Virus record (IMG/VR): IMGVR_UViG_3300042337_000191
Reading direction: 5' to 3' (one strand)
From: an uncultured virus (IMG/VR IMGVR_UViG_3300042337_000191)
Taxonomy: Duplodnaviria; Heunggongvirae; Uroviricota; Caudoviricetes
DNA: 64,000 bases
The translations under genes were made by a program, and so were the position numbers. Within the stretch, counting starts at the first letter, position 1. Every line of letters starts with the position of its first letter. This document shows, in pieces, positions 4,715 through 54,222 of this stretch. The notes below the pieces were generated by a model. It saw nothing but the letters and a program-made list of their open reading frames with translations, was not told where the DNA came from and searched no databases.

Positions 4715-4790
4715 GGGGATGTAGCTCAATGGTCAGAGCCGGTCGCTCATAACGGCTTGGTTGCAGGTTCGAGTCCTGCCATCCCCACCA
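4715..4790 (+). tRNA. tRNA with CAT anticodon, most likely tRNA-Ile2 (lysidine type)
   Basis: Cloverleaf, CTCATAA loop, encoded CCA; body resembles proteobacterial Ile2 rather than Met. Confidence 0.85.
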
Positions 4791-6648: not shown

Positions 6649-7353
6649 ATGGCAATTATTAGATTTAGTGACGAAGAAGTATTTGGTGTTGATTCTACAG
6701 AGTATGAAATTCTAGTTAACGCAGTAGCAAATGTAGGAGAAACTCCTGGTGCTATTGTTGAGATCGGTTCTCGACGTGGCGGCTCGGCCAAGATGATTAT
6801 TGATACTCTTGTTGCAACTGGTAATAATAACCGTTCAATGTTTTGTATTGATCCTTATGGTAATATTGATTATCCTTATACAAATAAGGGATTGGCATTA
6901 CATTATGGGCCTGATGCTGTTAAGGATGGTGATGTTGATGACGCAGAGAAGACAACACCAATTAAGTTAGATTATGATAATGAAATGCGTAATCGCACAA
7001 TCCCTTCTCTGTATTATTATGGTTATAACGCTGGCCTAAACTTCACTTTCTTTTGTCTAGAAGATACAGAGTTCTTCAAGCGTTATGCTGATGGTGTTCC
7101 AGTATACGATCAGCGCAAGACTCTAGAAACAGAATACGCCTTTGTGTTCTTTGATGGTCCTCATGACAATGCTTCTCTTAATGTAGAGTGCGAATTCTTT
7201 GTTCAGAGAGCTCCAGTCGGCGCAGTATTTGTCTTTGATGATATTGGTATGTATGATCATGATAAGGTCGTAGAAGAAAGTCATCTCTTCAATAATGGGT
7301 TTGAAGTCCTAGAAAAGGGAAACACAAAAGCTTCTTACGTCAAGCGTAAGTAA
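6649..7353 (+). CDS. class I SAM-dependent methyltransferase (Methyltransf_24/TylF-like)
   Basis: IVEIGSRRGGS, CIDPY, FFDGPH, VFDD motifs. Confidence 0.8.
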   Translation: MAIIRFSDEEVFGVDSTEYEILVNAVANVGETPGAIVEIGSRRGGSAKMIIDTLVATGNNNRSMFCIDPYGNIDYPYTNKGLALHYGPDAVKDGDVDDAEKTTPIKLDYDNEMRNRTIPSLYYYGYNAGLNFTFFCLEDTEFFKRYADGVPVYDQRKTLETEYAFVFFDGPHDNASLNVECEFFVQRAPVGAVFVFDDIGMYDHDKVVEESHLFNNGFEVLEKGNTKASYVKRK

Positions 7354-13481: not shown

Positions 13482-14243
13482 ATGGAAGAAGAAACAACAA
13501 CACGTCGATTAACTCGTAAAGAAAAAAGACTTCTTCGCCAACAAGGAAAACAACCGAAAGAAAATTATCAAGAAAAATTAAATTTTAATTTAAAACATTT
13601 TCATCCTCTTACACAGAATCAGAAGTTAGCATTTGATTCATTTGATGATGATAAAAATTTAATGCTCCATGGTATTGCCGGAACAGGCAAATCTTTTATG
13701 GCATTATATCTTTCTTTAAAACAGATCCTCAGCGATCCTGAATGTATTTACAAGAAAGTTGTTATTGTAAGATCGGTTGTTCCTACCAGAGATATGGGAT
13801 TCCTTCCTGGTAGTGACAGAGAAAAAACTAAAGTATATGAAGCGCCTTACTACGCCATTTGCACAGAATTATTTGGTCGTGGTGATGCGTATGAATACCT
13901 AAAAAGAAGAAATGTTATTGAGTTTATCTCTACCTCTTTTATTAGAGGTATTACGCTTAACGATTGTATCGTTGTTGTTGATGAAATGCAGAATGCTACT
14001 CTTCACGAGCTAGATTCTGTTATTACTCGTATTGGTCATAATTGTAAAGTTGTATTCTGTGGAGACTTTAGACAGTCTGACTTCACAAGAGAGCACGAGA
14101 AGAACGGGTTGACTGATTTCATGCGTGTCGTAAAGAACATGAGATCTTTTGATTTGATTGAATTTAATGCAGAGGATATCGTAAGATCTGCTCTTGTTAA
14201 AGAATATATAATACTGAAGGATAAAATGAGAATTGTCACGTAA
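13482..14243 (+). CDS. phoH: PhoH-like ATPase
   Basis: GIAGTGKS, GFLPG, RGITL, DEMQN, GDFRQSD, DIVRS. Confidence 0.93.
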   Translation: MEEETTTRRLTRKEKRLLRQQGKQPKENYQEKLNFNLKHFHPLTQNQKLAFDSFDDDKNLMLHGIAGTGKSFMALYLSLKQILSDPECIYKKVVIVRSVVPTRDMGFLPGSDREKTKVYEAPYYAICTELFGRGDAYEYLKRRNVIEFISTSFIRGITLNDCIVVVDEMQNATLHELDSVITRIGHNCKVVFCGDFRQSDFTREHEKNGLTDFMRVVKNMRSFDLIEFNAEDIVRSALVKEYIILKDKMRIVT

Positions 14244-14889
14244 ATTATTTAAACACAATCTAGTTCCAGAAGTGGAAATAGATACGAAGAACATTGATGG
14301 CAAAAGATATTATGTGTTACCGAGTGGAGAGAAATTTCGCTCGGTAACAACCGTATTAGATGGAGCACTAGACAAAACAGCATTAATGGAGTGGAAGAAA
14401 CGTGTCGGAGAAGAAGAGGCTCAGAAGATTTCTACACAGGCTGCTCGTCGTGGAACCGCCGTACACTCAATCGCCGAGCGTTATGTCCTCAATGAAGAGG
14501 ACCATCTTCGGGGTGCTATGCCTTCTGGAATTGATGCTTTTAAAGGTATTCAAACGCTCTTAGACAAATACGTAGATAATATCCTAGGTATCGAACTCCC
14601 TCTCTATTCTACTGTTTTAAAAACAGCAGGTAGATGCGACTTGATCGCAGAGTTTGATGGCGTCCCTTCTATAGTTGATTTTAAAACAAGCCGTAAACTT
14701 AAAAAAGAAGAGTGGATCACCAGTTATTTTTTACAGACAGCTTGTTACGCTATGATGTTTTCTTGGATGTATAAAATAACAATTCCTCAAATAGTTGTGA
14801 TGATAGCAGTAGACCATGAAAGCCCACAGCTTTTTGTTAAAGATACAAAGGATTATGTAGAAGAAGTTCTAAGAATTTTCAGAACTTAA
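14233..14889 (+). CDS. PD-(D/E)XK exonuclease
   Basis: SVTTVL, RGTAVH, AGRCD, IVDFKTS, QTACY. Confidence 0.85.
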   Translation: MSRKLFKHNLVPEVEIDTKNIDGKRYYVLPSGEKFRSVTTVLDGALDKTALMEWKKRVGEEEAQKISTQAARRGTAVHSIAERYVLNEEDHLRGAMPSGIDAFKGIQTLLDKYVDNILGIELPLYSTVLKTAGRCDLIAEFDGVPSIVDFKTSRKLKKEEWITSYFLQTACYAMMFSWMYKITIPQIVVMIAVDHESPQLFVKDTKDYVEEVLRIFRT

Positions 14890-15327
14890 TTTTTGTTCTC
14901 TTTTTAATCTACAAGTTTCTTTTATCTTAGCTTTACGTTCTTCCGTACAAGGTCTTCCTTTTAAAGCTATAGAAACTTTTTCTCCAACTTCTTTAGGTCT
15001 CTTTCTTCCTGAAAGAGTTTTAGATATCTTTTCTTTAACTGCTTCTTTTCTAGGAACGCCTTTTCTTTTTTTATTTGCGGCAATTATGTTTTCGAAACTT
15101 TTTTGTTTGCCATTTTTTATTCCATCAGAAATATTTTTTCTGTGTTGTTTTGTTTTTATTTTGCCTTTATTTGATTCAGAAATTAGTTTCTTGGTTTCTT
15201 CTGTGTGAGGAATACCGCTATTCCATCCAGAAGATATTTGAATAGTTTGCCAAGGTTCTAATGGAGGTATTTCATATTCTAATGGCGGAAGACCTAGTGC
15301 CTTCCCTATAGGGTCATAAATATCCAT
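14869..15327 (-). CDS. NUMOD3-repeat DNA-binding protein with TerS-identical N-terminal peptide and no nuclease domain
   Basis: About five HTEETKKLISES-type repeats; own late promoter and GGAG SD. Confidence 0.8.
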   Translation of the reverse strand: MDIYDPIGKALGLPPLEYEIPPLEPWQTIQISSGWNSGIPHTEETKKLISESNKGKIKTKQHRKNISDGIKNGKQKSFENIIAANKKRKGVPRKEAVKEKISKTLSGRKRPKEVGEKVSIALKGRPCTEERKAKIKETCRLKREQKLSSENS

Positions 15328-15393
15328 GCTGGACCTCCGTGTAAGGTTTAGAGTAGGTAGGGATTGCCTTCCCGTGACCTACACTTATTTATA
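15328..15393 (-). promoter_or_regulatory. late promoter plus structured 5' leader (copy A)
   Basis: TATAAATA (15386-15393) followed by two hairpins; homologous to 25134-25201. Confidence 0.8.
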
Positions 15394-15405: not shown

Positions 15406-15723
15406 TCATAAAACAACCAGAATAATAATTCCTAGTATAACTAAAGTCCAGAATAAATCGGAGAGGCTACCTTTAGCCTTTCTTCCTCTTTTTCTACTAA
15501 ACCCACCTGTAGTTTTACTCGTTACATACCATGAATTCGGCCCAACCTTCATAGATTGGGTCGTTCTGGATCTTCCAGTTTTTTGATTGGTCGAATAGGT
15601 AGTTCTCATATTACCTTTAAGACCAAAAGATGTAGAAGTAGTTACGCCTCTTTTACCACCCCATGAGGTAGTAGTTCTAACAGGCCCAACCTTCCTTGTG
15701 ATTCTAGTTCTTACATTTCCCAT
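15406..15723 (-). CDS. basic protein with C-terminal transmembrane helix (DUF4236-like)
   Basis: RTRITRKVGPVR...GVTTSTSFG; hydrophobic tail. Confidence 0.6.
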   Translation of the reverse strand: MGNVRTRITRKVGPVRTTTSWGGKRGVTTSTSFGLKGNMRTTYSTNQKTGRSRTTQSMKVGPNSWYVTSKTTGGFSRKRGRKAKGSLSDLFWTLVILGIIILVVL

Positions 15724-15738
15724 ACACCTATTTAGGCG

Positions 15739-16152
15739 TTAGCACCACAAGGTTCCGTAAGAGTCCTCTTCATCTAGAGAGAATACAGTTTTCTTGATGC
15801 CGAAATGTTCGATGGCTTTCTGACATCCCGGACAAGGTTCCGCCCTACCACTTACCCAGTTCATGTCTCCTTTGTGCTTGCGCTTTACACGATAGACATA
15901 TAGAGTGGCATTCTTAAGATCTTCTTCGTCGACAATCTTCAATGCTTTGATAATGCAATCTACCTCTGCATGTTTAAAGATCGCATCGTTATTCTTTGCG
16001 AATCTTTTCTGCAGAGGGTGAGATTTGTCGGAGTTTAGTCCAACTGAAATAATCTCGTTACGGATAACGAGACAAGCAGCGAGTTTCATTTTCATGTTGT
16101 TGGAAGTGGCGAGTCTACGGACAAAGTCCATATATTTCTTGTCGCGAGTCAT
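15739..16152 (-). CDS. Zn-dependent cytidine/adenosine deaminase-fold protein
   Basis: HAE and PCPGC motifs; start MTRDKK with GAGGA SD. Confidence 0.85.
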   Translation of the reverse strand: MTRDKKYMDFVRRLATSNNMKMKLAACLVIRNEIISVGLNSDKSHPLQKRFAKNNDAIFKHAEVDCIIKALKIVDEEDLKNATLYVYRVKRKHKGDMNWVSGRAEPCPGCQKAIEHFGIKKTVFSLDEEDSYGTLWC

Positions 16153-16164
16153 AATATAATCCTC

Positions 16165-16320
16165 GGGAGTTACTACCTTCTCCCAGTCACTATTTCGTTG
16201 AGACAGGTTTAGTGGATAAGACGGCATATCAGAGGACGTTCCAGGTTGCCTCTACCTATGTCTGTATAAAGCGATATGCCTACCTTATACAGTGAACGGA
16301 AAGTATCCATCTCTTTCCGT
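16165..16320 (-). ncRNA. candidate structured RNA (pseudoknot or switch) downstream of tRNA-Gly
   Basis: Interleaved 8-bp complementary pairs plus three hairpins. Confidence 0.4.
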
Positions 16321-16327
16321 CGGATTT

Positions 16328-16402
16328 TGGAGCGGGCGACCAGATTCGAACTGGCGACCAACAGTTTGGAAGACTGTGACTCTACCCCTGAGTTACACCC
16401 GC
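16328..16402 (-). tRNA. tRNA-Gly(TCC)
   Basis: Cloverleaf, CCA. Confidence 0.93.
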
Positions 16403-16524
16403 ATTAACCAAATGTATATAGGTCTTGTAATACAAAACCAGCGACAATCATCAATAAAAAGAAACAAACGATCTTGATAATTGCCGAAATTTTATGTTGT
16501 TCTTCAGTCATAATACATCCTTTT

Positions 16525-16599
16525 TGGCTCGGGATCATGGACTCGAACCACGAATGTCGGAGTCAGAATCCGAAGTTTTACCAATTAAACTAATCCCGA
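16525..16599 (-). tRNA. tRNA-Gln(CTG)
   Basis: Cloverleaf, CCA. Confidence 0.92.
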
Positions 16600-16600
16600 A

Positions 16601-16676
16601 TGGTGCTGGCAGCAGGAGTCGAACCCACGACCTTCTCATTACAAGTGAGTTGCTCTACCGTCTGAGCTATGCCAGC
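16601..16676 (-). tRNA. tRNA-Thr(TGT)
   Basis: Cloverleaf, CCA. Confidence 0.93.
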
Positions 16677-16677
16677 A

Positions 16678-17091
16678 TTAGTAAGCAGGAACCATACAAC
16701 TCTGAACCAGATCTGCTCCACCGAATAGCTGGCCAAACAAATCATAAGGATCAACATACATTGCACAGTTTCCAGAAGTTGCCACAGGAACATTAGTTGG
16801 ATATCCCGGAGGCGAATAGATGTTAGAAGCTTCTGGTGTTGGTACTGAATTATAAACAGGAACCAACGGTGCAGGTTGAACAGGAACTACTACTGGAACC
16901 ATAACTGTAGAGCTAATAGGACCAGGACCAGCAGGAACATACTCAACTGCAACAGGAACCTGAACAGTCTTTACAACTTTCTTTACTGGCTGCTGGTATG
17001 TAATCTTACAGTTATTACATACACTAATATTATCCTGCGCATAAGCAGGAACAGCCAATACAATCCCTAGAGCAACTAGAAACTTTCTCAT
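16678..17091 (-). CDS. secreted Pro/Val-rich protein
   Basis: Signal peptide MRKFLVALGIVLAVPAYA. Confidence 0.7.
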   Translation of the reverse strand: MRKFLVALGIVLAVPAYAQDNISVCNNCKITYQQPVKKVVKTVQVPVAVEYVPAGPGPISSTVMVPVVVPVQPAPLVPVYNSVPTPEASNIYSPPGYPTNVPVATSGNCAMYVDPYDLFGQLFGGADLVQSCMVPAY

Positions 17092-17093
17092 TG

Positions 17094-17378
17094 TTACCAC
17101 CCGTAGTAATAACCATTCCCAGGATAATAGTAATATGGCGAATTAGCGTATGGATAACGAGGACCATAGTAATATGGATAAGGATTATATCCATAACCCT
17201 GCGAAGCAATTGCGCCGCCGATTACTCCTCCGAGAATAGCAGCACCAGCCATGGCACCATAAGCTGCGCCATAACCACCGTAACCATATCCACCGTAGTA
17301 TCCACCACGATACCAAGCATTAGCCGGAGTCGTAATAACGCTACCGAGGATAACTAAAGCAGCAACAATCTTCTTCAT
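17094..17378 (-). CDS. secreted Gly/Tyr-rich protein
   Basis: Signal peptide, GGYYGGYGYGG, AILGGVIGGAIAS; resembles rhizobial Gly-rich exported proteins. Confidence 0.7.
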   Translation of the reverse strand: MKKIVAALVILGSVITTPANAWYRGGYYGGYGYGGYGAAYGAMAGAAILGGVIGGAIASQGYGYNPYPYYYGPRYPYANSPYYYYPGNGYYYGW

Positions 17379-17443
17379 AGCTTTTCTCCATAAAGCGAAC
17401 TGACCGTGGGTCCGCACGAGTCTATTTAGCGACCAACCTATAA

Positions 17444-17519
17444 TGGCTCCCGAGGAAGGGCTCGAACCTCCGACAAAGTCGTTAACAGCGACCTACTCTA
17501 CCAACTGAGTTACACGGGA
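17444..17519 (-). tRNA. tRNA-Asn(GTT)
   Basis: Cloverleaf, CCA. Confidence 0.92.
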
Positions 17520-17536
17520 ATAATTCTTATATTCTT

Positions 17537-17564
17537 AGTATACCTTATTTAGTCAGAAAGTCAA
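17537..17564 (-). promoter_or_regulatory. sigma70-type promoter with embedded late-like ACTAAATA
   Basis: TTGACT-N16-TATACT. Confidence 0.6.
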
Positions 17565-17587
17565 ATTCTTTTTTGACTGAGAGAGAA

Positions 17588-18325
17588 TTAACTGAAGGGA
17601 CATTTCGATTCTCTTTTTTGATTTCTCTTATCAAGCTGGACGAATTTTCTCCACCCATAAAAACTTGTTTGAGAATGGAAAGACATTTTCTTCCACTCGT
17701 ATTCCGAAACCAAATGTTGTCTAATCTTTACCTTCTTTTCTGACAAAGGCACCATAATAGCCAAAGGAAGACCAATCGGAATGATAAATTCTGATGTGTA
17801 ATTCGGAATCATCATATTTATGTGAGTCGAAGAGTTTAACTTATAATCAACGACTCCAGGAAGAACTCTAAAATAGAAATCTTCTAAATTCCATTCAGCG
17901 CCAAGAAAAACAAACTTAACACCTGTCTTTTCTTTAAAAAACCATGGGCTAGTTAATTTCAAATGAAAATAATTTTTAAACCCTTCACCATATAATTGCT
18001 TATCATGAATATCACAACCAGTGTCAAACGAAGCCCAAGTATCCATTCTGTTGTTAGCAATTTTAATAATTCTATCAGACCAGTTTTCTAGAACAATTCC
18101 TCGTTTATAAAGTTCAAGGAAACCAGAACATGTCTTCATATTTGCATTATTAAATGCTCTGTTGTTTACAATCCTATAGGGATTTCCCTCTGGCTTCCTA
18201 AGATTGTCCCACCATTCTGGTGTCGCTTTATAAGCATGAACAATAGGAGTTACCTCAAAAATCATACGATGCGCTGTGAAACAATCTATTGTTATCTCTG
18301 GACTTCTTTTGAAGAATGAAAACAT
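17588..18325 (-). CDS. hypothetical phage protein
   Basis: 245-aa ORF inside the tRNA cluster. Confidence 0.75.
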   Translation of the reverse strand: MFSFFKRSPEITIDCFTAHRMIFEVTPIVHAYKATPEWWDNLRKPEGNPYRIVNNRAFNNANMKTCSGFLELYKRGIVLENWSDRIIKIANNRMDTWASFDTGCDIHDKQLYGEGFKNYFHLKLTSPWFFKEKTGVKFVFLGAEWNLEDFYFRVLPGVVDYKLNSSTHINMMIPNYTSEFIIPIGLPLAIMVPLSEKKVKIRQHLVSEYEWKKMSFHSQTSFYGWRKFVQLDKRNQKRESKCPFS

Positions 18326-18341
18326 AATATATTCTTTCTTT

Positions 18342-18415
18342 TGGTACTGGCACCAGGTATCGATCCTAGTCTACAAGATCCACAATCTCGTGTGCTACCT
18401 TTACACTATGCCAGC
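18342..18415 (-). tRNA. tRNA-His(GTG), lacking G-1
   Basis: Cloverleaf; G1:U72, A73. Confidence 0.88.
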
Positions 18416-18418
18416 ATA

Positions 18419-18492
18419 TGGATCGGGGTCAGGGACTCGAACCCCGACATGCAGATTCAAAGTCTGCGGTTCTACCATTAAACTAACCCCGA
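18419..18492 (-). tRNA. tRNA-Gln(TTG)
   Basis: Cloverleaf, CCA. Confidence 0.9.
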
Positions 18493-18499
18493 ACAATTT

Positions 18500-18591
18500 T
18501 GGTGCGTAGGGATGGATTCGAACCACCAATGTTACCGCAAAGGGAACGGATTTACAGTCCGTCGCAACACCACCGTCGTTGCCGCCTACGC
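18500..18591 (-). tRNA. tRNA-Tyr(GTA)
   Basis: Cloverleaf with long variable arm. Confidence 0.88.
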
Positions 18592-18596
18592 ATGTT

Positions 18597-18673
18597 TGGA
18601 GTCCCAGGAAGGATTCAAACCCTCAACCTTCGGTTCCGTAGACCGATGCTCTATTCAGTTGAGCTACTGAGAC
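18597..18673 (-). tRNA. tRNA-Arg(ACG)
   Basis: Cloverleaf, CCA. Confidence 0.9.
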
Positions 18674-18674
18674 A

Positions 18675-18751
18675 TGGTGCCCTTGGTCAGATTCGAACTG
18701 ACACTTTGTTGATTTTGAGTCAACTGCCTCTGCCGATTGGGCTACAAGGGC
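18675..18751 (-). tRNA. tRNA-Leu(CAA), short variable arm
   Basis: Cloverleaf, CCA. Confidence 0.88.
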
Positions 18752-18908
18752 TTTTCTTGAACAATAATCAAAACTGGATAGCATGTTCTTTTAACAAGAT
18801 AAATGCCAGGTTTCCAGTTAATAGGATTGTTGTTTTTTATTCTTACTGGTATTTCGCAATAAAAATCAACTCGTTTTGTGGATCCTATAATACCACCTAC
18901 ATGTTTCA

Positions 18909-18984
18909 TGGTGCTTCCCCCTAGAATTAAACTAGATCCTCTCGTTCTTCAGACGAGCGTGCGCATCAGCTACACCAGAGAAGC
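18909..18984 (-). tRNA. tRNA-Phe(GAA)
   Basis: Cloverleaf, atypical T-loop TTTAATT. Confidence 0.82.
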
Positions 18985-18990
18985 ATTATA

Positions 18991-19086
18991 TGGTAGGCCA
19001 GGTAGGATTCGAACCTACTCGTTGTCTTTCATCCGGATTCATGGACAACAGCGTCTCGCCACGTCTTCCTATTCCGTCACTGACCT
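18991..19086 (-). ncRNA. tRNA-like RNA without a canonical anticodon arm
   Basis: 7-bp acceptor stem + ACCA and perfect T-arm GTAGG-TTCGAAT-CCTAC, but no 7-nt anticodon loop. Confidence 0.75.
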
Positions 19087-19090
19087 ATAT

Positions 19091-19167
19091 TGGTGCCCCT
19101 GGTAAGATTCGAACTTACAACCTCCTGATTCTAAGTCAGGCATCTCTTCCAGTTGGACTACAGAGGC
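19091..19167 (-). tRNA. tRNA-Leu(TAG), short variable arm
   Basis: Cloverleaf, CCA. Confidence 0.88.
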
Positions 19168-19171
19168 ATAT

Positions 19172-19246
19172 TGGTACGGGATGACAGGGTTGAACTGCCG
19201 ACCTTCGCCGTGTAAAAGCGTTGCTCTACCACTGAGCTAATCCCGC
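19172..19246 (-). tRNA. tRNA-Val(TAC)
   Basis: Cloverleaf, CCA. Confidence 0.9.
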
Positions 19247-19337
19247 ATATTATCTATCACCTAAATTCAAAAGGAATGCTAAGATTCCTATTGATATCCA
19301 TAACACAACGAGTAACTTTAACATACTCTGTCCTAAT

Positions 19338-19415
19338 TGGTCGGGGTAGCAGGATTCGAACCTGCGACCTACTGGTTCCAAACCAGCCACGCTAACCAGA
19401 CTGCGCTACACCCCG
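19338..19415 (-). tRNA. tRNA-Pro(TGG)
   Basis: Cloverleaf, CCA. Confidence 0.93.
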
Positions 19416-19422
19416 AATATAT

Positions 19423-19498
19423 TGGATGCGAAGCGTTGGAATTGCACCAACTTCTACTGGTTTATGAGACCAGCGAGATACTATACCTCCCGCCCGCA
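19423..19498 (-). tRNA. tRNA-Met(CAT), atypical
   Basis: CTGGT-CTCATAA-ACCAG arm; T-loop TGCAATT; bulged acceptor stem. Confidence 0.75.
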
Positions 19499-19505
19499 AA
19501 ACTCT

Positions 19506-19580
19506 TGGTGCTGATAGTTGGAATCAAACCAACCTGAAACGCCTTATGAGAGCGCCTCGACATCTTGCCGACCTATCAGC
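19506..19580 (-). tRNA. tRNA-Met(CAT), atypical D-arm
   Basis: CTCATAA loop, 7-bp acceptor stem, CCA. Confidence 0.78.
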
Positions 19581-19584
19581 GAAA

Positions 19585-19658
19585 TGGCACCAGTGGAAGG
19601 AGTCGAACCCTCGCCTGCTGTTTTGGAGACAGCCGTGCTACCGTAACACTTCACTGAT
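19585..19658 (-). tRNA. tRNA-Trp(CCA)
   Basis: Cloverleaf, CCA. Confidence 0.9.
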
Positions 19659-19660
19659 AA

Positions 19661-19750
19661 TGGCGGAGTGGTGGCGGAATCGAACCCCTGGCCTTTCGGC
19701 TCTACTGGTTTTCAAGACCAGACTAGTATCCCCGACTAGATACGCACTCC
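19661..19750 (-). tRNA. tRNA-Ser(TGA), irregular acceptor/T stems
   Basis: CTGGT-CTTGAAA-ACCAG arm, long variable arm, G73. Confidence 0.8.
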
Positions 19751-19765
19751 ATTTTTATTTAAACT

Positions 19766-19841
19766 TGGTGGACCAGAGAGGAATCGAACCCCCGACCCTC
19801 TGAATGCAAATCAGATGCTCTCCCAACTGAGCTACTGGCCC
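19766..19841 (-). tRNA. tRNA-Ala(TGC)
   Basis: Cloverleaf, G3:U70. Confidence 0.93.
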
Positions 19842-19861
19842 GAAACGTATTCTATTTAGTA

Positions 19862-19890
19862 ATATTACCGCATTTTAACAGACAAGTCAA
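19862..19890 (-). promoter_or_regulatory. sigma70-type promoter for the tRNA block, followed by late-like ACTAAATA
   Basis: TTGACT-N17-TAATAT. Confidence 0.6.
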
Positions 19891-19899
19891 CAACTTTTT

Positions 19900-19990
19900 T
19901 GGCGGAGAGTGAGAGATTCGAACTCTCGGTAGACTTTCGCCCACGCTTCGTTAGCAGTGAAGTGCCTTAGACCAACTCGGCCAACTCTCC
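19900..19990 (-). tRNA. tRNA-Ser(GCT)
   Basis: Cloverleaf, long variable arm. Confidence 0.92.
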
Positions 19991-19994
19991 AATT

Positions 19995-20086
19995 TGGTAG
20001 GCATGGTGGGACTCGAACCCACTGAAGAACACCCATCTGATGCTAAAGGCTTTATAAGAGCCTCCCCGCTACCCAGCGTCACGCCC
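19995..20086 (-). tRNA. non-canonical tRNA with TAT anticodon and long variable arm
   Basis: AGGCT-CTTATAA-AGCCT arm, 4-nt D-loop, good T-arm, ACCA. Confidence 0.75.
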
Positions 20087-20100
20087 AAACTTTGTAAACT

Positions 20101-20108
20101 TATAAATA
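20101..20108 (+). promoter_or_regulatory. T4-type late promoter
   Basis: TATAAATA upstream of the Seg-like gene. Confidence 0.7.
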
Positions 20109-20134
20109 CTAAGCAGCAGATGATTGAGGATACA

Positions 20135-20767
20135 ATGAAAGCATATACTTACACTATTACCCACATTTCTACTGGTAATATTTATTACGGAGTAAGAAAA
20201 TCGTCCATCGAAGATATTGGAGTGGACTACTTTTCTTCCTCTAAACTTATCAATCGCCTCATACAAGAGGATGGTATTGAAAACTTTTCATTTAAAGTTA
20301 GAAGAAAGTTCGATACATACGAAGATGCTCGTAAACACGAAACCAAGTTTCTTCAGAGAGTGAAAGCAGTATCTAATCCTAGGTTCTATAACCAAGCCAT
20401 TTCTTCTCCGAGAGTGTGCAAGAAAGACTCACATTCAGAAGAAAAAAGAAAACAATCTATTTCAGAAACTATGAAACTGCTGTGGCAGTCAGAAGACTAC
20501 AGAAATAGACAAAAATTCAACAAACTCTCTAAAGAAGAAAGATCTAAGAGAGGAAGAAAAGGCGGTCTTGCAACTGCTAAGACCAGAACCAAGAAACCCA
20601 AAAACAAACCTACTTACAGTGAAATCTTGATCGTCAAAGACGGTAAGACCAAAACAGTAAAAAGAAACCAAGTCCCAGCATACAGAAAGTATGGTTGGGA
20701 AAGGGCGAATGGCGACCCGTACGGGGATCGAACCCGTTATCTCTGGCGTGACAGGCCAGCGTCTTAA
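20135..20767 (+). CDS. Seg-like GIY-YIG homing endonuclease inserted antisense in the tRNA cluster
   Basis: YTYTITHISTGNIYYGVR...DYFSSS; NUMOD3-like HSEEKRKQSISET. Confidence 0.8.
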   Translation: MKAYTYTITHISTGNIYYGVRKSSIEDIGVDYFSSSKLINRLIQEDGIENFSFKVRRKFDTYEDARKHETKFLQRVKAVSNPRFYNQAISSPRVCKKDSHSEEKRKQSISETMKLLWQSEDYRNRQKFNKLSKEERSKRGRKGGLATAKTRTKKPKNKPTYSEILIVKDGKTKTVKRNQVPAYRKYGWERANGDPYGDRTRYLWRDRPAS

Positions 20768-20786
20768 CCAATTCGACTTACGAGCC
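20710..20786 (-). tRNA. tRNA-Asp(GTC)
   Basis: Cloverleaf, CCA. Confidence 0.9.
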
Positions 20787-20794
20787 ATTATAGC

Positions 20795-20932
20795 TTTCGG
20801 GCAGACGAGGACACACATTCGTCTCTTCTCTCACATTTGTTACAGCGCCGTGAATTAGCCGTATATACTTGCACCATATATCCGGTCCTATCATTTAGAA
20901 CGATAGGTATATGGCTACGTATGCACCCGAAA
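20795..20932 (-). ncRNA. candidate structured ncRNA between tRNA-Lys and tRNA-Asp
   Basis: Closing TTTCGGG/CCCGAAA stem plus at least three nested stems. Confidence 0.5.
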
Positions 20933-20934
20933 CT

Positions 20935-21010
20935 TGGAGGATCCTCAGGGACTCGAACCCTGAACCTTGAGATTAAAAGTCTCTTGCTCTACCTATTGAG
21001 CTAAGGATCC
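20935..21010 (-). tRNA. tRNA-Lys(TTT)
   Basis: Cloverleaf, CCA. Confidence 0.93.
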
Positions 21011-21017
21011 ATTATAT

Positions 21018-21095
21018 TGGTAGGGCGGATGGGACTCGAACCCACATTGCACAGATTGAAAGTCTGTTTTCCTAGGCCAATTAGAAGACCGCCCC
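21018..21095 (-). tRNA. tRNA-Glu(TTC)
   Basis: Cloverleaf, CCA. Confidence 0.9.
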
Positions 21096-21110
21096 GTAAC
21101 TTACACACTT

Positions 21111-21139
21111 AATATACCCTGAAAGAAAGTCAAAGTCAA
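21111..21139 (-). promoter_or_regulatory. sigma70-type promoter
   Basis: TTGACT-N17-TATATT. Confidence 0.6.
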
Positions 21140-21151
21140 CTTCTTTCTGAA

Positions 21152-21227
21152 TGGTAGACCGAGAGGGGATCGAACCCACGACAAAGGGATTAAGAGTCCC
21201 CTGCTCTACCAACTGAGCTATCGGTCC
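21152..21227 (-). tRNA. tRNA-Lys(CTT)
   Basis: Cloverleaf, CCA. Confidence 0.92.
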
Positions 21228-21233
21228 ATAAAC

Positions 21234-21309
21234 TGGTGCTGTAGGAGAGATTCGAACTCCCGACCTACTGATTACTAATCAGTTGCTCTACCAACTGAGC
21301 TACTACAGC
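21234..21309 (-). tRNA. tRNA-Thr(AGT)
   Basis: Canonical cloverleaf, ACTGA-TTAGTAA-TCAGT. Confidence 0.9.
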
Positions 21310-21310
21310 A

Positions 21311-21386
21311 TGGTTGTCCCTGCTGGCTCCGACCCAGCGACCCCAGTCTTATCAGGACTGTGCTCTACCAACTGAGCTAAGGGACA
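21311..21386 (-). tRNA. tRNA-Ile(GAT)
   Basis: Cloverleaf, atypical T-loop. Confidence 0.85.
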
Positions 21387-21388
21387 TC

Positions 21389-21523
21389 AATTCTTAGAAA
21401 GATACAGGTTTACTATGTCACTCATTCTGATGGTTGCAATCCAGAGCAGAACCTATTTGCGACACAAGGTTTGGGCTTTTTTACGGATCCTCGCCCGCAC
21501 GAGCCTGTACCTATCTAAGAATT
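21389..21523 (-). ncRNA. candidate structured ncRNA between tRNA-Cys and tRNA-Ile
   Basis: AATTCTTAGA/TCTAAGAATT plus a 9-bp closing helix and internal hairpins. Confidence 0.55.
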
Positions 21524-21602
21524 GGAGGGAGTGATGGGACTCGAACCCACATATTTTAGGTTTTGCAGACCTTGCCGTAACCAATTCCGGACACACACTC
21601 CC
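21523..21602 (-). tRNA. tRNA-Cys(GCA)
   Basis: Cloverleaf, U73, CCA. Confidence 0.88.
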
Positions 21603-23726: not shown

Positions 23727-24178
23727 TTGACTCCACCTTTATTATTTTTATTTTTTATAAGTTCAATTTGTTGTGGCGTAAGAATCTTTAATGCTTCTTT
23801 AGTGCGCACAATATTGTATTTATAATAATTAGAAACCAAGGTTTGGAGTTCTTCTTTCTTCTTACGGTCAGCCTTTTCTTTATCAGTTTCTTTAACGCCT
23901 CTCATCTTTCTTTTTCTTATAGAATTATAAAGATAATCATAATGCATTTGATCTGTCACACCATAGTGACAATTCATTTCATTAGCATAAAGAATTGTTT
24001 CTCTATAGTTTGATAAAACGCTATTAGTTCTCCATTGGCTATACTCTGAATCAACGTCAACCTCTTTACCAGAAGTTATTGAGTTTTCAAATCTCCAGTC
24101 ATACCTTGGTTTCTGTATTTTAATTTCTTGTTCAGGCTCTTTTCTTTCCTGTAACGTAACGTCTAAAAACTTAGCCAT
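23723..24178 (-). CDS. 62: clamp loader small subunit (gp62)
   Basis: ILYANEMN...YDYLYNSIRKRK; synteny 45-44-62-regA. Confidence 0.85.
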   Translation of the reverse strand: MAKFLDVTLQERKEPEQEIKIQKPRYDWRFENSITSGKEVDVDSEYSQWRTNSVLSNYRETILYANEMNCHYGVTDQMHYDYLYNSIRKRKMRGVKETDKEKADRKKKEELQTLVSNYYKYNIVRTKEALKILTPQQIELIKNKNNKGGVK

Positions 24179-25116
24179 CACACAAACTCACATTCAATCA
24201 TAACTTGAACTAGAAATGCCATAAAATTAATTTCAGGATTTGCAGCAAAAGCATTCTGGTATTGATATTTTGCTAGCTGTAGAACCAACACTGGTGCTGT
24301 TTGCTTAGTGCAAATATCAGACGAAATTTCATAGAACTGATTATAAAGATAATTAACATCCGTATCTAGATTATTTTTTACCCACTTACGGATTTCAGTA
24401 TAATTCTGTTCCTTCATCAACTTAACAAGATCCTTGATAGAAGTCTCTGTCATATTTGCTAGAATGCCAGAGTCAATCTTACCAGTCGCTGAATAACGCT
24501 GAAGCTCGTTAAGGACTCGCCGCCAATCTGGGAAGTGCTTATTGATTACTTCAGCAACAACAGCCTTATCAAACTCAATGCTTTCTGATTCAAGAATAAA
24601 TGTAACTCTCTTGAAGAACTGCGTAGCAAGCTTGGCCATAGCCTTCTTGCTAATTTTAAAATCAATTACCGAGCATCTTGAATGCAAAGGTTCAATGATA
24701 CGGTTCTTGAAGTTGCACGTAAGAATGAACCCGCAGTTTCTTGAGAACTCTTCCATAAAATTGCGAAGTGCGGGTTGAGTAGAATTGGCATTAAGATAAT
24801 CCGCTTCGTCAAGGATGACATATTTCCTGCCACCGGAAAGTGATACGGATGACGCAAAGTTGAGTATTTCGTTACGAAGTGTGTCGATATTTCCATTCAT
24901 AGATCCATTAATGACGATATAATCACAACCAAGCTGTTCTAGCATAGCACGTGCTACGGTCGTCTTACCGACACCTGCTGTTCCTGCTAGGATTAAATTA
25001 GGGATATTCTTTTGATCAACAAACTGTTGGAATGTTGCCTTCAAATCACAAGGAAGAATAGTTTCTTCAATAGTCTTAGGTCTGTATTTTTCAGTCCAGA
25101 TAAAATGTTCATCCAT
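24178..25116 (-). CDS. 44: clamp loader ATPase subunit (gp44)
   Basis: WTEKYRP, GTAGVGKTT, ILDEAD, SRC motifs. Confidence 0.95.
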   Translation of the reverse strand: MDEHFIWTEKYRPKTIEETILPCDLKATFQQFVDQKNIPNLILAGTAGVGKTTVARAMLEQLGCDYIVINGSMNGNIDTLRNEILNFASSVSLSGGRKYVILDEADYLNANSTQPALRNFMEEFSRNCGFILTCNFKNRIIEPLHSRCSVIDFKISKKAMAKLATQFFKRVTFILESESIEFDKAVVAEVINKHFPDWRRVLNELQRYSATGKIDSGILANMTETSIKDLVKLMKEQNYTEIRKWVKNNLDTDVNYLYNQFYEISSDICTKQTAPVLVLQLAKYQYQNAFAANPEINFMAFLVQVMIECEFV

Positions 25117-25133
25117 GTCAAAATTCTCCATTA

Positions 25134-25201
25134 TATAAATAAGCGTAGGTCACGGAGTCCCCACTCCTACCTACTCTAACGCTAATTAGGAGCGCCAGCA
25201 T
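25134..25201 (+). promoter_or_regulatory. late promoter plus structured 5' leader (copy B)
   Basis: TATAAATA followed by two hairpins; homologous to 15328-15393. Confidence 0.8.
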
Positions 25202-25753
25202 ATGATTATATATAAAATCACCAACCTTATCAATGGCAAAATTTACGTAGGTAAAACTACAAAAACCGCCAAAGAAAGATTTAAACGCCATTTCTACAAC
25301 CATAAAACTGGTAACACCTACCTCTATAAATCTATGCGAAAACATGGGTTCGATAATTTCAACATAGAAATAATAGAAAAAACTGAAAACTTGAACGAAA
25401 GAGAATCGTTTTGGATATCAGAATTATCGCCCGAATATAATATGACCTCCGGAGGAGATGGAGGAGATACTTCTCAATCCCCAAATTATATTACTGCAAT
25501 AAAACAAAGAGATATATCAGGTCAAAAAAATCCAATGTTTGGAAAGAAAAGAACAGATACTGCAATCTATCTCGTTGCTGCCAGAGAAAAAATGATTCAA
25601 GCAAATAAATGTCCAGTCATTTGCGAAGGTATCGAATATGATTCAGTAGGCAAAGCCCAAGAAGCATATCCTGGAATATCTATACGCAAAAGACTGGACA
25701 ACCCAAAATATCCTAATTTCTATCGCCTAAGAGAAAAAACTATCAAAAGGTAG
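25202..25753 (+). CDS. GIY-YIG homing endonuclease inserted antisense between genes 45 and 44
   Basis: IIYKITNLINGKIYVGKT, YNMTSGGDG, GQKNPMFGK. Confidence 0.88.
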   Translation: MIIYKITNLINGKIYVGKTTKTAKERFKRHFYNHKTGNTYLYKSMRKHGFDNFNIEIIEKTENLNERESFWISELSPEYNMTSGGDGGDTSQSPNYITAIKQRDISGQKNPMFGKKRTDTAIYLVAAREKMIQANKCPVICEGIEYDSVGKAQEAYPGISIRKRLDNPKYPNFYRLREKTIKR

Positions 25754-26396
25754 AACTTGATTCCACGGCAATATAATATTCTACATCATCATGAACAAAA
25801 TGGGAGATACCCTTTGATGAAATATTAACATCATAATCGCCCGGAATGATCTTAATATTCTCAGCCTTAAAGATTGCCTTGAATGCCTTATCAGTATCAC
25901 CAATCTGAACAGAATAGATGTCGCCAGAAGGATTCTTAGAATCAGCAGCCTGTAGATAAAGGTTCTTACCATCACCCATAACAACAATCTCAGGAAGAGC
26001 AAGAATGCCTGCTGCCTTCTCAACATCCTTGAGATTATCATTAGTCAAACGAAAAGTAACATCAACCGAAGGAAGATTGATTTCTCTTTCCGGAGCCTTT
26101 GTTACCGTGCTTTCGTCAGCATACACATAATGAGTCTTACGATTATTGTCAGAAATGTCAACAGACTTATCTCCAAACTTAAAATCTGGATCAGTGAAAG
26201 TGCTAACGATCGAAATGAAACGATCGAGATTATAGATTGCAAATCGTCTATCAAAGTCGGTCTTAACCTTTGCCTTTGCCATGATTGTCTTGGTTGGCGA
26301 AATGGTCTTAAGAACATTGCCTTCCTGAACAACAATGGATGGATTGATCTTCGCAAAGTTCTTCAAAACATTAACTGTATCTGTATCAATCTTCAT
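25743..26396 (-). CDS. 45: sliding clamp (gp45)
   Basis: VLKNFAKINPSI, FAIYNLDRF, KIIPGDY, YYIAVE. Confidence 0.93.
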   Translation of the reverse strand: MKIDTDTVNVLKNFAKINPSIVVQEGNVLKTISPTKTIMAKAKVKTDFDRRFAIYNLDRFISIVSTFTDPDFKFGDKSVDISDNNRKTHYVYADESTVTKAPEREINLPSVDVTFRLTNDNLKDVEKAAGILALPEIVVMGDGKNLYLQAADSKNPSGDIYSVQIGDTDKAFKAIFKAENIKIIPGDYDVNISSKGISHFVHDDVEYYIAVESSSTF

Positions 26397-52172: not shown

Positions 52173-53813
52173 TTAGAAGTCCTGAGGTTGGTTCCACATC
52201 CAAGAATCACCGACAAATCTTTCATAATCTTCTTCAATAAAATCGTCCCTTCCAGAGTCCACAAACCCAAAAGGAGCCAAATCTTGCTCCATATCTTCTT
52301 CGGTTTTGTCCCTTAGTGACATAAGAGTGTTGATATTAGTATAGTCTTTAAAATATTGCTGGTCCGAGAGCCAAGCAAACAGAACCAGACACATAACCAA
52401 GTCATCGTGTTTACCGGACTCTGCTTCGTACGAAGTTCCTTTTTTAGAAAAGGTGCCTAATTCACTGATGGTGTTTACGTCGTTTACTATCAACTGGTTT
52501 TGCTCAATCAGTAGTTTTAGGATAGAACACCCAATAGATTTTACAATTTTGGTAGTTCTAATGCCCTTGTCAACGCTGCCGCCTCCAAACCCAGTAGTTA
52601 TTCTTTTGCCGGACCTACCAGCGTTTTCGGTAAACAGAACATTCTCATACCCAAAATCATAGTTGAGAGAAGTTGAGACTTGTTCACCTATGTCATTAAC
52701 CTCAACAAGAACTGAAGCATTATTATACGCCTTAGCGGTTCGGTGGATAATGTCGGCATAATCTAGCGGGGTGATAGCATTATTCCTATAAACGCCCACT
52801 TGTTGATAAGGCATAGAAGTAACATCTATCAACTGAAAGGCTGAATAGTCCAATCCTTTACCACGAGAAACGTCACAAACCATCATATAAACATGATTAG
52901 GTTCTACTGCTCTGAACTGAGTTAGACCATCTTTTTGTAAGATTGGATTCTGAGAAACTAATTCCTTGAGCTTCCAACCAGCAATTAGAGTTCCGGATGA
53001 ACCTAGGAATTCGCAGTTATACTCCTGATCAAACTTTTCAAGATCAAAGTTCATACCCGCTAAAGTGTCAGCTTTCCACTTCTCATCTCTACCAGGAACT
53101 GCTTGCCAATTGACTAGAATTGGATGATATCCGTTAGTCCCCTTTTCAGCGTTCGCCCAAGTAGCATGGAAGTGGTTCAAACCGTTCGGAGTAGAAACTA
53201 GAATGATCTTGGATTCTGAACCTGATGAAATAGTAGGATAAACTGAGGTGAAGAATTCGTCCCAGTTATCAATGAACGCCGCTTCGTCGATGAATAGAAG
53301 GTTGATGGTATAACCACGGATGGCGCTGGCAGAAGTGGCAGCAGCCAAAACACGACTGTTATTTTCAAGAACGAATGAACCTTTATTCCATTCAACAACG
53401 CCCTGCTGGAGCCATTTAGGTAAGTGCTGGTAAGCCAACTGAACACGACCAAGAATTTCTCGAGCCGTATCGCCCTTGTTGGCTAGTAGGGCTACGGTCT
53501 TATCAGGGTGAAAAATAATATACCAAAGGATGAAGGCGCAGGTAGTTGTTGACTTACCTGCCTGTCGAGCAGTAGTAACAATAGTGTAACGGTTGTCTTT
53601 AAATGAAGTCACCATTTCTTTCTGGTAACCATACAACTTGAAACTTGTAAGACCCTCGTTAATCGAGATAATCTTCATATAATTTTCAGTAAAATAAACA
53701 GGATCGTTCTGACATTTTACATACTCCTGAACAAGGTCCGGAGTCCATTCAATGTTCTGATTAGTTTTCTTTAGAAGAACATTACCCTTATAACCACCCA
53801 CCAACTCATTCAT
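52173..53813 (-). CDS. 17: terminase large subunit gp17
   Basis: ARQAGKST, FIDEAAF, STPNGLNHF, DVSRG, HDDLVM. Confidence 0.96.
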   Translation of the reverse strand: MNELVGGYKGNVLLKKTNQNIEWTPDLVQEYVKCQNDPVYFTENYMKIISINEGLTSFKLYGYQKEMVTSFKDNRYTIVTTARQAGKSTTTCAFILWYIIFHPDKTVALLANKGDTAREILGRVQLAYQHLPKWLQQGVVEWNKGSFVLENNSRVLAAATSASAIRGYTINLLFIDEAAFIDNWDEFFTSVYPTISSGSESKIILVSTPNGLNHFHATWANAEKGTNGYHPILVNWQAVPGRDEKWKADTLAGMNFDLEKFDQEYNCEFLGSSGTLIAGWKLKELVSQNPILQKDGLTQFRAVEPNHVYMMVCDVSRGKGLDYSAFQLIDVTSMPYQQVGVYRNNAITPLDYADIIHRTAKAYNNASVLVEVNDIGEQVSTSLNYDFGYENVLFTENAGRSGKRITTGFGGGSVDKGIRTTKIVKSIGCSILKLLIEQNQLIVNDVNTISELGTFSKKGTSYEAESGKHDDLVMCLVLFAWLSDQQYFKDYTNINTLMSLRDKTEEDMEQDLAPFGFVDSGRDDFIEEDYERFVGDSWMWNQPQDF

Positions 53814-54222
53814 TGTTCTTCATATCCTTGAGAACTTTTTGTAACTCGGCAGTTGAACCCACAAATAAGTTGTTATTAATAGTCTGAGCTTTTTCGTTTA
53901 TAGGACTATCTTTGGCGTCAATATCTCTAATTTTAGTTTGAAGATCTAACAGTTCTTTATTAGTGTTGACCACTGTATCCATAAGTTTGGCCAAGACTTC
54001 GAATGCACGTGGATGCTGAGAAGCTGCTGCGATCTCAGTTAATTTACCAATGGCTTCTTGACCTGTTTGAATTACTTCATACAAATTAGCTCTTGCAGCT
54101 TCAAAATCATTCCTAGCAGAATCATCATGAGCTTTAGCAATTATATTGTCTATTTGTTTTTCATATTCTAATGGCGGCAGACCTAATGCCTTGCCAATAG
54201 GATCATCATCTTTTTCTGTCAT
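53806..54222 (-). CDS. 16: terminase small subunit gp16
   Basis: DFEAARANL, HPRAFEV, NNNLFVGSTAELQK; directly upstream of 17. Confidence 0.9.
   Translation of the reverse strand: MTEKDDDPIGKALGLPPLEYEKQIDNIIAKAHDDSARNDFEAARANLYEVIQTGQEAIGKLTEIAAASQHPRAFEVLAKLMDTVVNTNKELLDLQTKIRDIDAKDSPINEKAQTINNNLFVGSTAELQKVLKDMKNNE

Follow-up and report, generated by a model that had tools for sequence, protein, structure and literature searches.

The 64,000-nucleotide (nt) stretch of DNA analysed here, called the window below, comes from an uncultured virus of the Caudoviricetes (IMG/VR record IMGVR_UViG_3300042337_000191). At positions 14869-15327 of its minus strand lies an open reading frame (ORF) of 152 amino acids (aa) that looks like a homing endonuclease gene (HEG) without a nuclease. 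The ORF is a free-standing HEG cassette minus the N-terminal catalytic domain, and the place of that domain is taken by a copy, 15-20 residues long, of the N-terminal arm of TerS, the small subunit of the phage terminase. The same arm stands at residue 5, behind M-x-I-Y, in a family of at least 20 protein clusters at 50% identity. The peptide suggests, but does not prove, that a site-specific DNA binder has been hooked to the packaging machinery.

A terminase arm in place of a nuclease

The protein begins MDIYDPIGKALGLPPLEYE and is laid out as MDIY, a TerS-type motif, a proline-rich linker, and a basic helical body of the NUMOD3 type. The source of the motif is the gp16-like terS gene of the window (138 aa, 53806-54222, minus strand; Pfam PF11053, E 5.7e-10), whose product begins MTEKDDDPIGKALGLPPLEYEKQ. 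A first-pass annotation, made from the letters of the window, had reported 15 residues identical between the two proteins, and the match holds: residues 5-19 of the ORF, DPIGKALGLPPLEYE, are encoded at 15271-15315 (minus strand) and recur in TerS at 54160-54204. In a six-frame scan of the window with the BLOSUM62 matrix, this pair scored 81 and the runner-up 31, so the shared peptide is not due to chance. The five synonymous differences it had counted within the 45 nt are also there, position for position, and all of them fall within the first 27 nt. In that part, four of nine codons are identical to the phage's own terS, with 3.4 expected under independent synonymous draws. In the last 18 nt, encoding PPLEYE, all six codons are identical to those of the resident gene (2.95 expected; P ~0.009, a post-hoc value), and a sister terS allele differs from the resident one at three positions of the same 18 nt. 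Such codon counts point to a motif with an old core and a tail that may have been exchanged recently and locally with the resident terS.

The peptide was said to stem from TerS, and wider searches bear this out. A DNA pattern for DPIGKALGL found 60 stretches in viral contigs which, sorted by a reading of their ORFs, comprise 44 TerS genes of many subtypes, 12 HEG-like genes, and 4 others. Most of the best 120 of 1851 TerS matches carry D-P-[IML]-G-K-A-L-[GN]-[LIV]-x-P. The TerS proteins of S-CAM8, S-CAM1, Melnitz, JS10, Vibrio D482, and HTVC008M have only a looser, amphipathic version of the motif. DPIGKALGL is thus a clade-specific form of the TerS N-terminal arm, and its presence in the HEG-like family points to capture from terS.

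Beyond the window, three further protein types, at 36-41% identity, start with MDIYDPIG[KI]ALGL[SE]P[LIM]E[FL]. A profile built from the four N-termini (34 aa) was run against 1.84 billion representatives and retrieved 22 proteins at E <= 1e-3. Two of these (924 and 414 aa, partial matches) were left out of the examination; the other 20, of 37-186 aa, all have the motif at their start, two of them behind a short upstream extension, with the consensus M[DNP]IY[DE]PI[GA]xALGLxP. The bodies behind the motif vary and include NUMOD3 helices, PWNKG repeats, a CxHC zinc finger, and a C-terminal part resembling a helix-turn-helix, and none of the 20 members has a nuclease domain. A pattern scan of metagenomes gave 32 stretches, 15 of them family-like and 17 chance-like, and each of the 15 has TAAATA no more than 75 nt upstream.

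No part of the family proteins is as constrained as the arm. An alignment of 17 members gives a mean pairwise identity of 0.68 for motif positions 5-18 and of 0.23 for the remainder. Across the four types, nearly every third position of the nine core codons differs, with a single amino-acid change, K to I. Since the core codons have been scrambled synonymously, selection acts on the peptide, as had been proposed from the window alone. Judging from these patterns, the peptide is under purifying selection within the HEG-like lineage, independently of TerS.

Models of the two proteins give the arm a similar shape. The AlphaFold2 model of TerS (42-sequence alignment, mean pLDDT 68.8) has a block mean pLDDT of 49-58 over residues 1-30, where a short helix at residues 8-12 is followed by coil and, from residue 20, by a long coiled-coil helix; no helix-turn-helix fold is seen in this model. 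The model of the ORF (mean pLDDT 79, pTM 0.26) shows a short helix at residues 6-10, a linker, and extended helices. For both proteins, the models thus predict a flexible tail with a short helix in it. The arm combines acidic and hydrophobic residues, and at the position of its only basic one, K9, family members have K, E, I, or V. An acidic motif with a variable lysine fits a protein-binding linear motif better than a DNA-binding element, and the arm is probably such a motif; a DNA-binding arm was rejected on the same grounds. Prohead-protease signals follow the pattern L/I-x-E. A capsid-targeting or prohead-protease signal was likewise rejected, as the motif does not contain this pattern and TerS is not packaged.

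The absence of a nuclease motif, also claimed earlier, is confirmed by both domain collections. Pfam finds NUMOD3 and nothing else in the ORF (E 2.9e-7; 30.8 bits against a cut-off of 20.4), and PHROGs aligns it with the homing-endonuclease family phrog_314 over positions 280-319 alone of a 574-position profile, a stretch that follows the nuclease. In contrast, the GIY-YIG HEG of the window spans positions 180-387 of the same profile. The ORF thus has the modular C-terminal DNA-binding region of I-TevI-type HEGs and, by Pfam, no GIY-YIG catalytic domain, so that by this criterion it is not a GIY-YIG or I-TevI-type endonuclease. It is excluded from the endonucleases because the catalytic domain was searched for and not found. 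It is excluded from TerS because the central oligomerisation domain is absent: Pfam reports no PF11053 in it, and its likeness to TerS is confined to residues 5-19. About five NUMOD3-like repeats had been described in the body, which holds in part. One of them is significant (residues 41-56, 30.8 bits), while the four further K/R-rich repeats score 17-23, short of the 95th percentile of shuffled sequences (26). The closest relative that does bear a nuclease (P0003, GIY-YIG plus NUMOD3) is 39% identical over 65% of the query, and a sequence search of the PDB gave no match.

The cassette, its leader, and its insertion site

The late promoter attributed to the ORF is present as a T4-type box, TATAAATA, at 15386-15393 (minus strand), 58 nt upstream of the ATG; the assignment draws on established T4 knowledge and on Dassa et al. 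2009. Between the box and the start codon the leader folds into two hairpins, both supported by covariation in an alignment of 67 of 108 unique leaders, which excludes any leader with a truncated end or a long or unusual spacer. Hairpin 1 (15353-15382, minus strand) has an outer stem GTAGGT/ACCTAC and an inner stem GGGA/TCCC, with ten pairs, six of which show compensatory changes, and 96-98% of the alignment cells paired. Hairpin 2 (15333-15347, minus strand; ACCT/AGGT) overlaps the Shine-Dalgarno sequence GGAGG at 15334-15338, and all four of its pairs show compensatory changes, with 83% of cells paired. Over the whole fold, pairing is seen in 93.4% of cells and drops to 33-47% in controls with slid partners; covariation scores 0.56, compared to at most 0.13 in controls, and none of 500 shuffles came up to 0.56. 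Rfam has no family for this leader. As seen across the leaders, the order of the 5' module is TATAAATA or CTAAATA, the two covarying hairpins, ACTCTA, the Shine-Dalgarno sequence, CAGC, and ATG NNN ATT TAT.

The leader is shared with genuine HEGs. The 66-nt stretch from promoter to ATG is repeated at 25134 on the plus strand (leader 25134-25201), ahead of a GIY-YIG HEG cassette (183 aa, 25134-25753, plus strand; Pfam GIY-YIG, E 1.9e-9) with the same promoter, hairpins, and start module. This cassette sits between a clamp-loader-like gene (24178-25131) and a clamp-like gene (25743-26396). In the nearest record, G001 (112 kb, holding 92% of the window's words), the leader precedes four genes: the window's ORF, the window's GIY-YIG HEG, a second GIY-YIG HEG (MNIYYVYAY..., 157 aa), and a second TerS-arm gene. 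The last of these lies outside the window (G001 7051-7121; L031 1110-1538, minus strand), about 5.8 kb from the second GIY-YIG cassette (L033 1042-1515), and encodes 142 aa beginning MDIYDPIGKALGLEPIEFN with a PWNKG-repeat body.

A pattern scan of viral contigs found the leader in at least 124 stretches (L135-L258). The 80 loci with DNA gave 67 distinct downstream ORFs, and 6 had no callable ORF. Among the 67 are HEGs of the GIY-YIG and HNH kinds as well as other ORFs; nearly all begin M-x-I-Y, a start that is thus found on GIY-YIG, HNH, and nuclease-less bodies alike. Unrelated proteins begin in the same way because the first four codons belong to the regulatory module. The codons for M-D-I-Y in the ORF (15316-15327, minus strand), being common to GIY-YIG and HNH cassettes, are therefore part of the cassette's 5' module and not of the TerS copy.

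The ORF cassette accordingly has the kind of leader, a late promoter with a 5' untranslated region (UTR) hairpin, that is typical of HEGs. Of the 16 free-standing HEGs from marine fractured-gene loci described in the available part of Dassa et al. 2009 (PMC2677866), 15 have a hairpin in the 5' UTR and 10 of them have TATAAATA; two conserved motifs pair in the stem, and several HEG families are represented. From that account, this type of leader is already known in general.

Other nuclease-less cassettes of the NUMOD type also carry the leader (L137 968-1396, L183 409-879, L164 391-879, L212 424-879, and L142 964-1419), and their N-terminal peptides differ (NISK[RK]LCEILN.., ..FESLKT.., ..SFLAEMREWF..). 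TerS-like arms on these five are unsupported: in local alignments of their peptides with the TerS N-termini of the six named phages, 0.10-0.87 of shuffles scored at least as high. A tblastn search of two of the five peptides against phage records returned nothing useful.

Comparison of loci shows where the cassette was inserted. Its left border is a PD-(D/E)XK nuclease gene (14233-14889, plus strand), whose 3' end overlaps the ORF by 21 nt, and its right border is orf105 (15406-15723, minus strand), which abuts the PD-(D/E)XK gene in the closest relatives. Among 38 loci with relatives of the PD-(D/E)XK gene, the ORF is present in all five from the same phage and has no match in the 33 others. 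L102-L105, the four closest relatives at 84% identity, have the PD-(D/E)XK gene and the orf105 homologue overlapping tail to tail; the ~500 bp that the window has from TATAAATA to the stop codon have thus been inserted where two 3' ends converge. In another relative, G011 (86% complete, with a TerS beginning DPIGKALGLPAMTFE), there is no gene starting with M-x-I-Y-[DE]-P. Sporadic insertion between conserved genes is a mark of free-standing HEGs, and the ORF has it. One form of the earlier proposal, a nuclease-less selfish element, is borne out to the extent that insertion polymorphism together with Pfam and PHROGs identifies a sporadic, nuclease-less derivative. Contigs from four lake-water runs, spanning 2016-2025, bridge the cassette to both flanks with 0-2 differences, and none in those four runs skips it. 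A blastn search with the locus against phage records gave no match.

Proposed mechanism and rival explanations

In GIY-YIG HEGs, the catalytic domain is tethered by a flexible linker to the DNA-binding body. The ORF could act in an I-TevI-like manner with the effector swapped: the body would bind a specific DNA site, and the linker would present the mimic of the TerS arm. The mimic would then take hold of the TerS arm's own partner within the late packaging complex; TerL or the holoterminase is the most plausible candidate. The candidate partner in the window is the gp17-like terL (546 aa, 52173-53813, minus strand), with PF03237 and PF17289 in its cluster. The non-specific nuclease of the terminase, or the start of packaging, would thereby be brought to the bound site. 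A break there could drive gene conversion of the cassette into cassette-less genomes, in effect homing with a borrowed nuclease, and the cassette might also come to lie at that end of the packaged genome which is terminally redundant and diploid. A late promoter means that the ORF is expressed simultaneously with the terminase. Effector-swapped homing through a TerS-arm mimic is, as a whole, a tentative reading with clearly less than an even chance of being right. Its central step, recruitment of the terminase by the putative mimic, is possible though doubtful. The further idea that an HEG lineage of a T4-like phage gave up its own nuclease and outsourced cleavage to the terminase, as a two-component gene drive coupled to packaging, is rather unlikely.

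In favour of effector-swapped homing, the T4 reviews PMC9958956, PMC4872099, and PMC3012670, in the passages available, state that both gp16 domains are needed for stimulation of the gp17 ATPase and for control of the nuclease. Several observations weigh against it. The same passages place TerL specificity in the TerS C-domain and treat the N-domain as a predicted DNA binder. Given this assignment, the premise that TerS engages TerL through its N-terminal peptide is not established. Furthermore, about 14 of the best 120 TerS matches lack the DPIGKALG segment, so that in some lineages basic TerS function can do without the arm. One such protein starts MNEEENLPLKYE...; those of this kind have 129-131 aa, and the arm has been deleted in some TerS lineages. 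In one of the five window-type loci, the frame is cut short by a stop codon behind residue 78, and P0126 (78 aa), which represents the 50%-identity cluster in the database, is this truncated form too. The loci recorded for the truncated allele are L005, L072, L099, and L263.

Co-variation of the peptide with the cognate TerS gave a divided answer, obtained in one phage only. A contig (G004) whose TerS is identical to that of the window also holds the second family gene. The window's gene matches this TerS through all 15 residues, whereas the second gene shares the nine-residue core and has the motif tail EPIEFN, unlike the PPLEYE of its own TerS; this again counts against the proposal. Outside the invariant core, the peptide thus does not simply follow the TerS of its own genome, and with one gene matching and one not, the core rather than the tail is the common denominator. 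Contigs of other family members contained a TerS in none of four cases, and none of five TerS-bearing records contained a family gene.

One could also consider the ORF a domesticated or defensive DNA binder that sits on a homing site or an operator, be it to protect the genome against related HEGs or to repress a promoter, with the arm serving a generic purpose, such as stability or self-association, for which TerS uses it too. I-TevI is known to repress its own promoter, nuclease-less DNA-binding bodies are conserved, and with several HEG cassettes in one genome protection could pay off. This explanation is nevertheless unlikely, as it does not account for a TerS-specific arm that is the most conserved part of proteins whose bodies are 23% identical, nor for the different peptides on other nuclease-less cassettes. 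Alternatively, the arm may bind a partner of TerS that is not TerL, such as the TerS ring, the portal, the sliding clamp, or the late-transcription proteins to which T4 packaging is coupled, so that the protein would tether that partner to a DNA site. The motif appears unlike the clamp-binding tails of T4 gp43, gp55, and gp33, and an alternative partner is distinctly unlikely, even though the anatomy would be the same as in effector-swapped homing and a flexible linear motif would suit it. In its favour, one T4 review also notes, in the part available, that stimulation of the gp17 nuclease by gp16 requires the presence of T4 transcription factors.

A decoy or inhibitor would make use of the arm in another way, by competing with TerS for its partner and so modulating or blocking packaging, perhaps in phages that co-infect the cell. 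As a precedent, there are mobile elements that bind TerL and give packaging a new specificity, namely Gpi and GpsA/B of the PLE satellites as far as the available text of 10.1101/2024.04.22.590561 describes them, and the invariant core would fit the partner of any TerS of the clade. A decoy is very unlikely all the same, since it would harm its own phage and would have no need of the sequence-specific DNA-binding body that every family member has kept. Least of all is to be expected from a functionless, decaying HEG remnant whose likeness to TerS is maintained by gene conversion with terS. The gene is accessory, one allele is truncated, and over its last 18 nt the motif matches the resident terS letter for letter, all of which would agree with decay. 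On the other hand, the core codons are synonymously scrambled among four diverged types with one amino-acid change, and agree with the phage's own terS at four of nine codons, where independent draws would give 3.4. The motif has also been kept on different bodies in twenty clusters, and the cassette is unchanged in the contigs of the four lake runs from 2016-2025, which makes a mere remnant extremely unlikely.

Known systems, significance, and the surrounding region

The cassette, the leader, and the body are those of known free-standing HEGs; what sets it apart is a TerS arm on a nuclease-less body. The closest comparison is with the free-standing GIY-YIG HEGs of T4-like phages, which include those of I-TevI architecture and the Seg proteins. 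The ORF shares with them the late promoter and hairpin leader, the presence or absence between genes, and a body of the NUMOD3, zinc-finger, or helix-turn-helix kind behind a flexible linker. It differs in having neither GIY-YIG, HNH, nor any other nuclease, and a 15-residue TerS arm at the position of the effector. In the part of PMC2677866 available, the HEGs are alike in their 5' UTR hairpin, TATAAATA, pairing motifs, and spread over several HEG families, and unlike in that they bear nucleases, with neither a TerS peptide nor a form without a nuclease mentioned there; the likeness is one of description. The TerS (gp16) proteins of T4-like phages, PF11053, have the arm DPIGKALGLxP[LIM]E[YF] and the same predicted short helix, along with an oligomerisation coiled coil and a C-domain that the ORF does not have.

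Other mobile elements are known to act on the terminase. SaPI TerS is one satellite protein that hijacks packaging. HK97 gp74 is an HNH protein that works with the terminase at cos sites; it likewise couples an HEG-family protein to the packaging enzyme, a coupling that is putative for the ORF. In HK97, the HNH nuclease helps the terminase, while in the system proposed here the terminase would supply the nuclease. According to the accessible portion of Boyd & Seed (bioRxiv 10.1101/2024.04.22.590561), Gpi and GpsA/GpsB of the PLE are satellite proteins that act on the terminase of the helper, and Gpi binds TerL. The likeness is that a small protein of a mobile element redirects packaging, although action on the terminase is putative for the ORF. 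Within the same limits of that text, the PLE satellites differ in being satellites with TerS-like or unrelated proteins of their own, whereas the ORF is a cassette inside a phage and has, of TerS, the linear motif only, borne on the DNA-binding body of an HEG. In open-access papers and on bioRxiv, no account was found of an HEG body that lacks a nuclease and bears a TerS peptide.

If the arm does recruit the terminase, the ORF would be a selfish element that works by means of a borrowed housekeeping nuclease, and its family would show in nature how a packaging enzyme can be targeted in a programmable way. In T4-type packaging, the binding partner of the TerS N-terminal region is unsettled, and here a 15-residue piece of that region is isolated on an unrelated scaffold and strongly selected. 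Even without recruitment, the family indicates that effector swapping on the DNA-binding scaffolds of HEGs occurs naturally, and not solely in engineered Tev fusions.

The surroundings of the insertion site vary in other respects. In the closest of the relatives without the cassette, an ORF of 223 aa lies between phoH and the PD-(D/E)XK gene (L102 2340-3011). The two genes overlap in the window, which makes this a second presence/absence difference in the same small region. Directly behind the dCMP-deaminase gene that flanks the locus begins an array of 23 tRNAs (window 16331-21600, minus strand), and one further tRNA lies at 4715-4787 on the plus strand (both from Rfam). In two freshwater runs from 2016, contigs join position 16152 to 16327 with 15 other letters in place of about 174 nt, a variant of the stretch from the dCMP-deaminase gene to the first tRNA (window 16148-16327).

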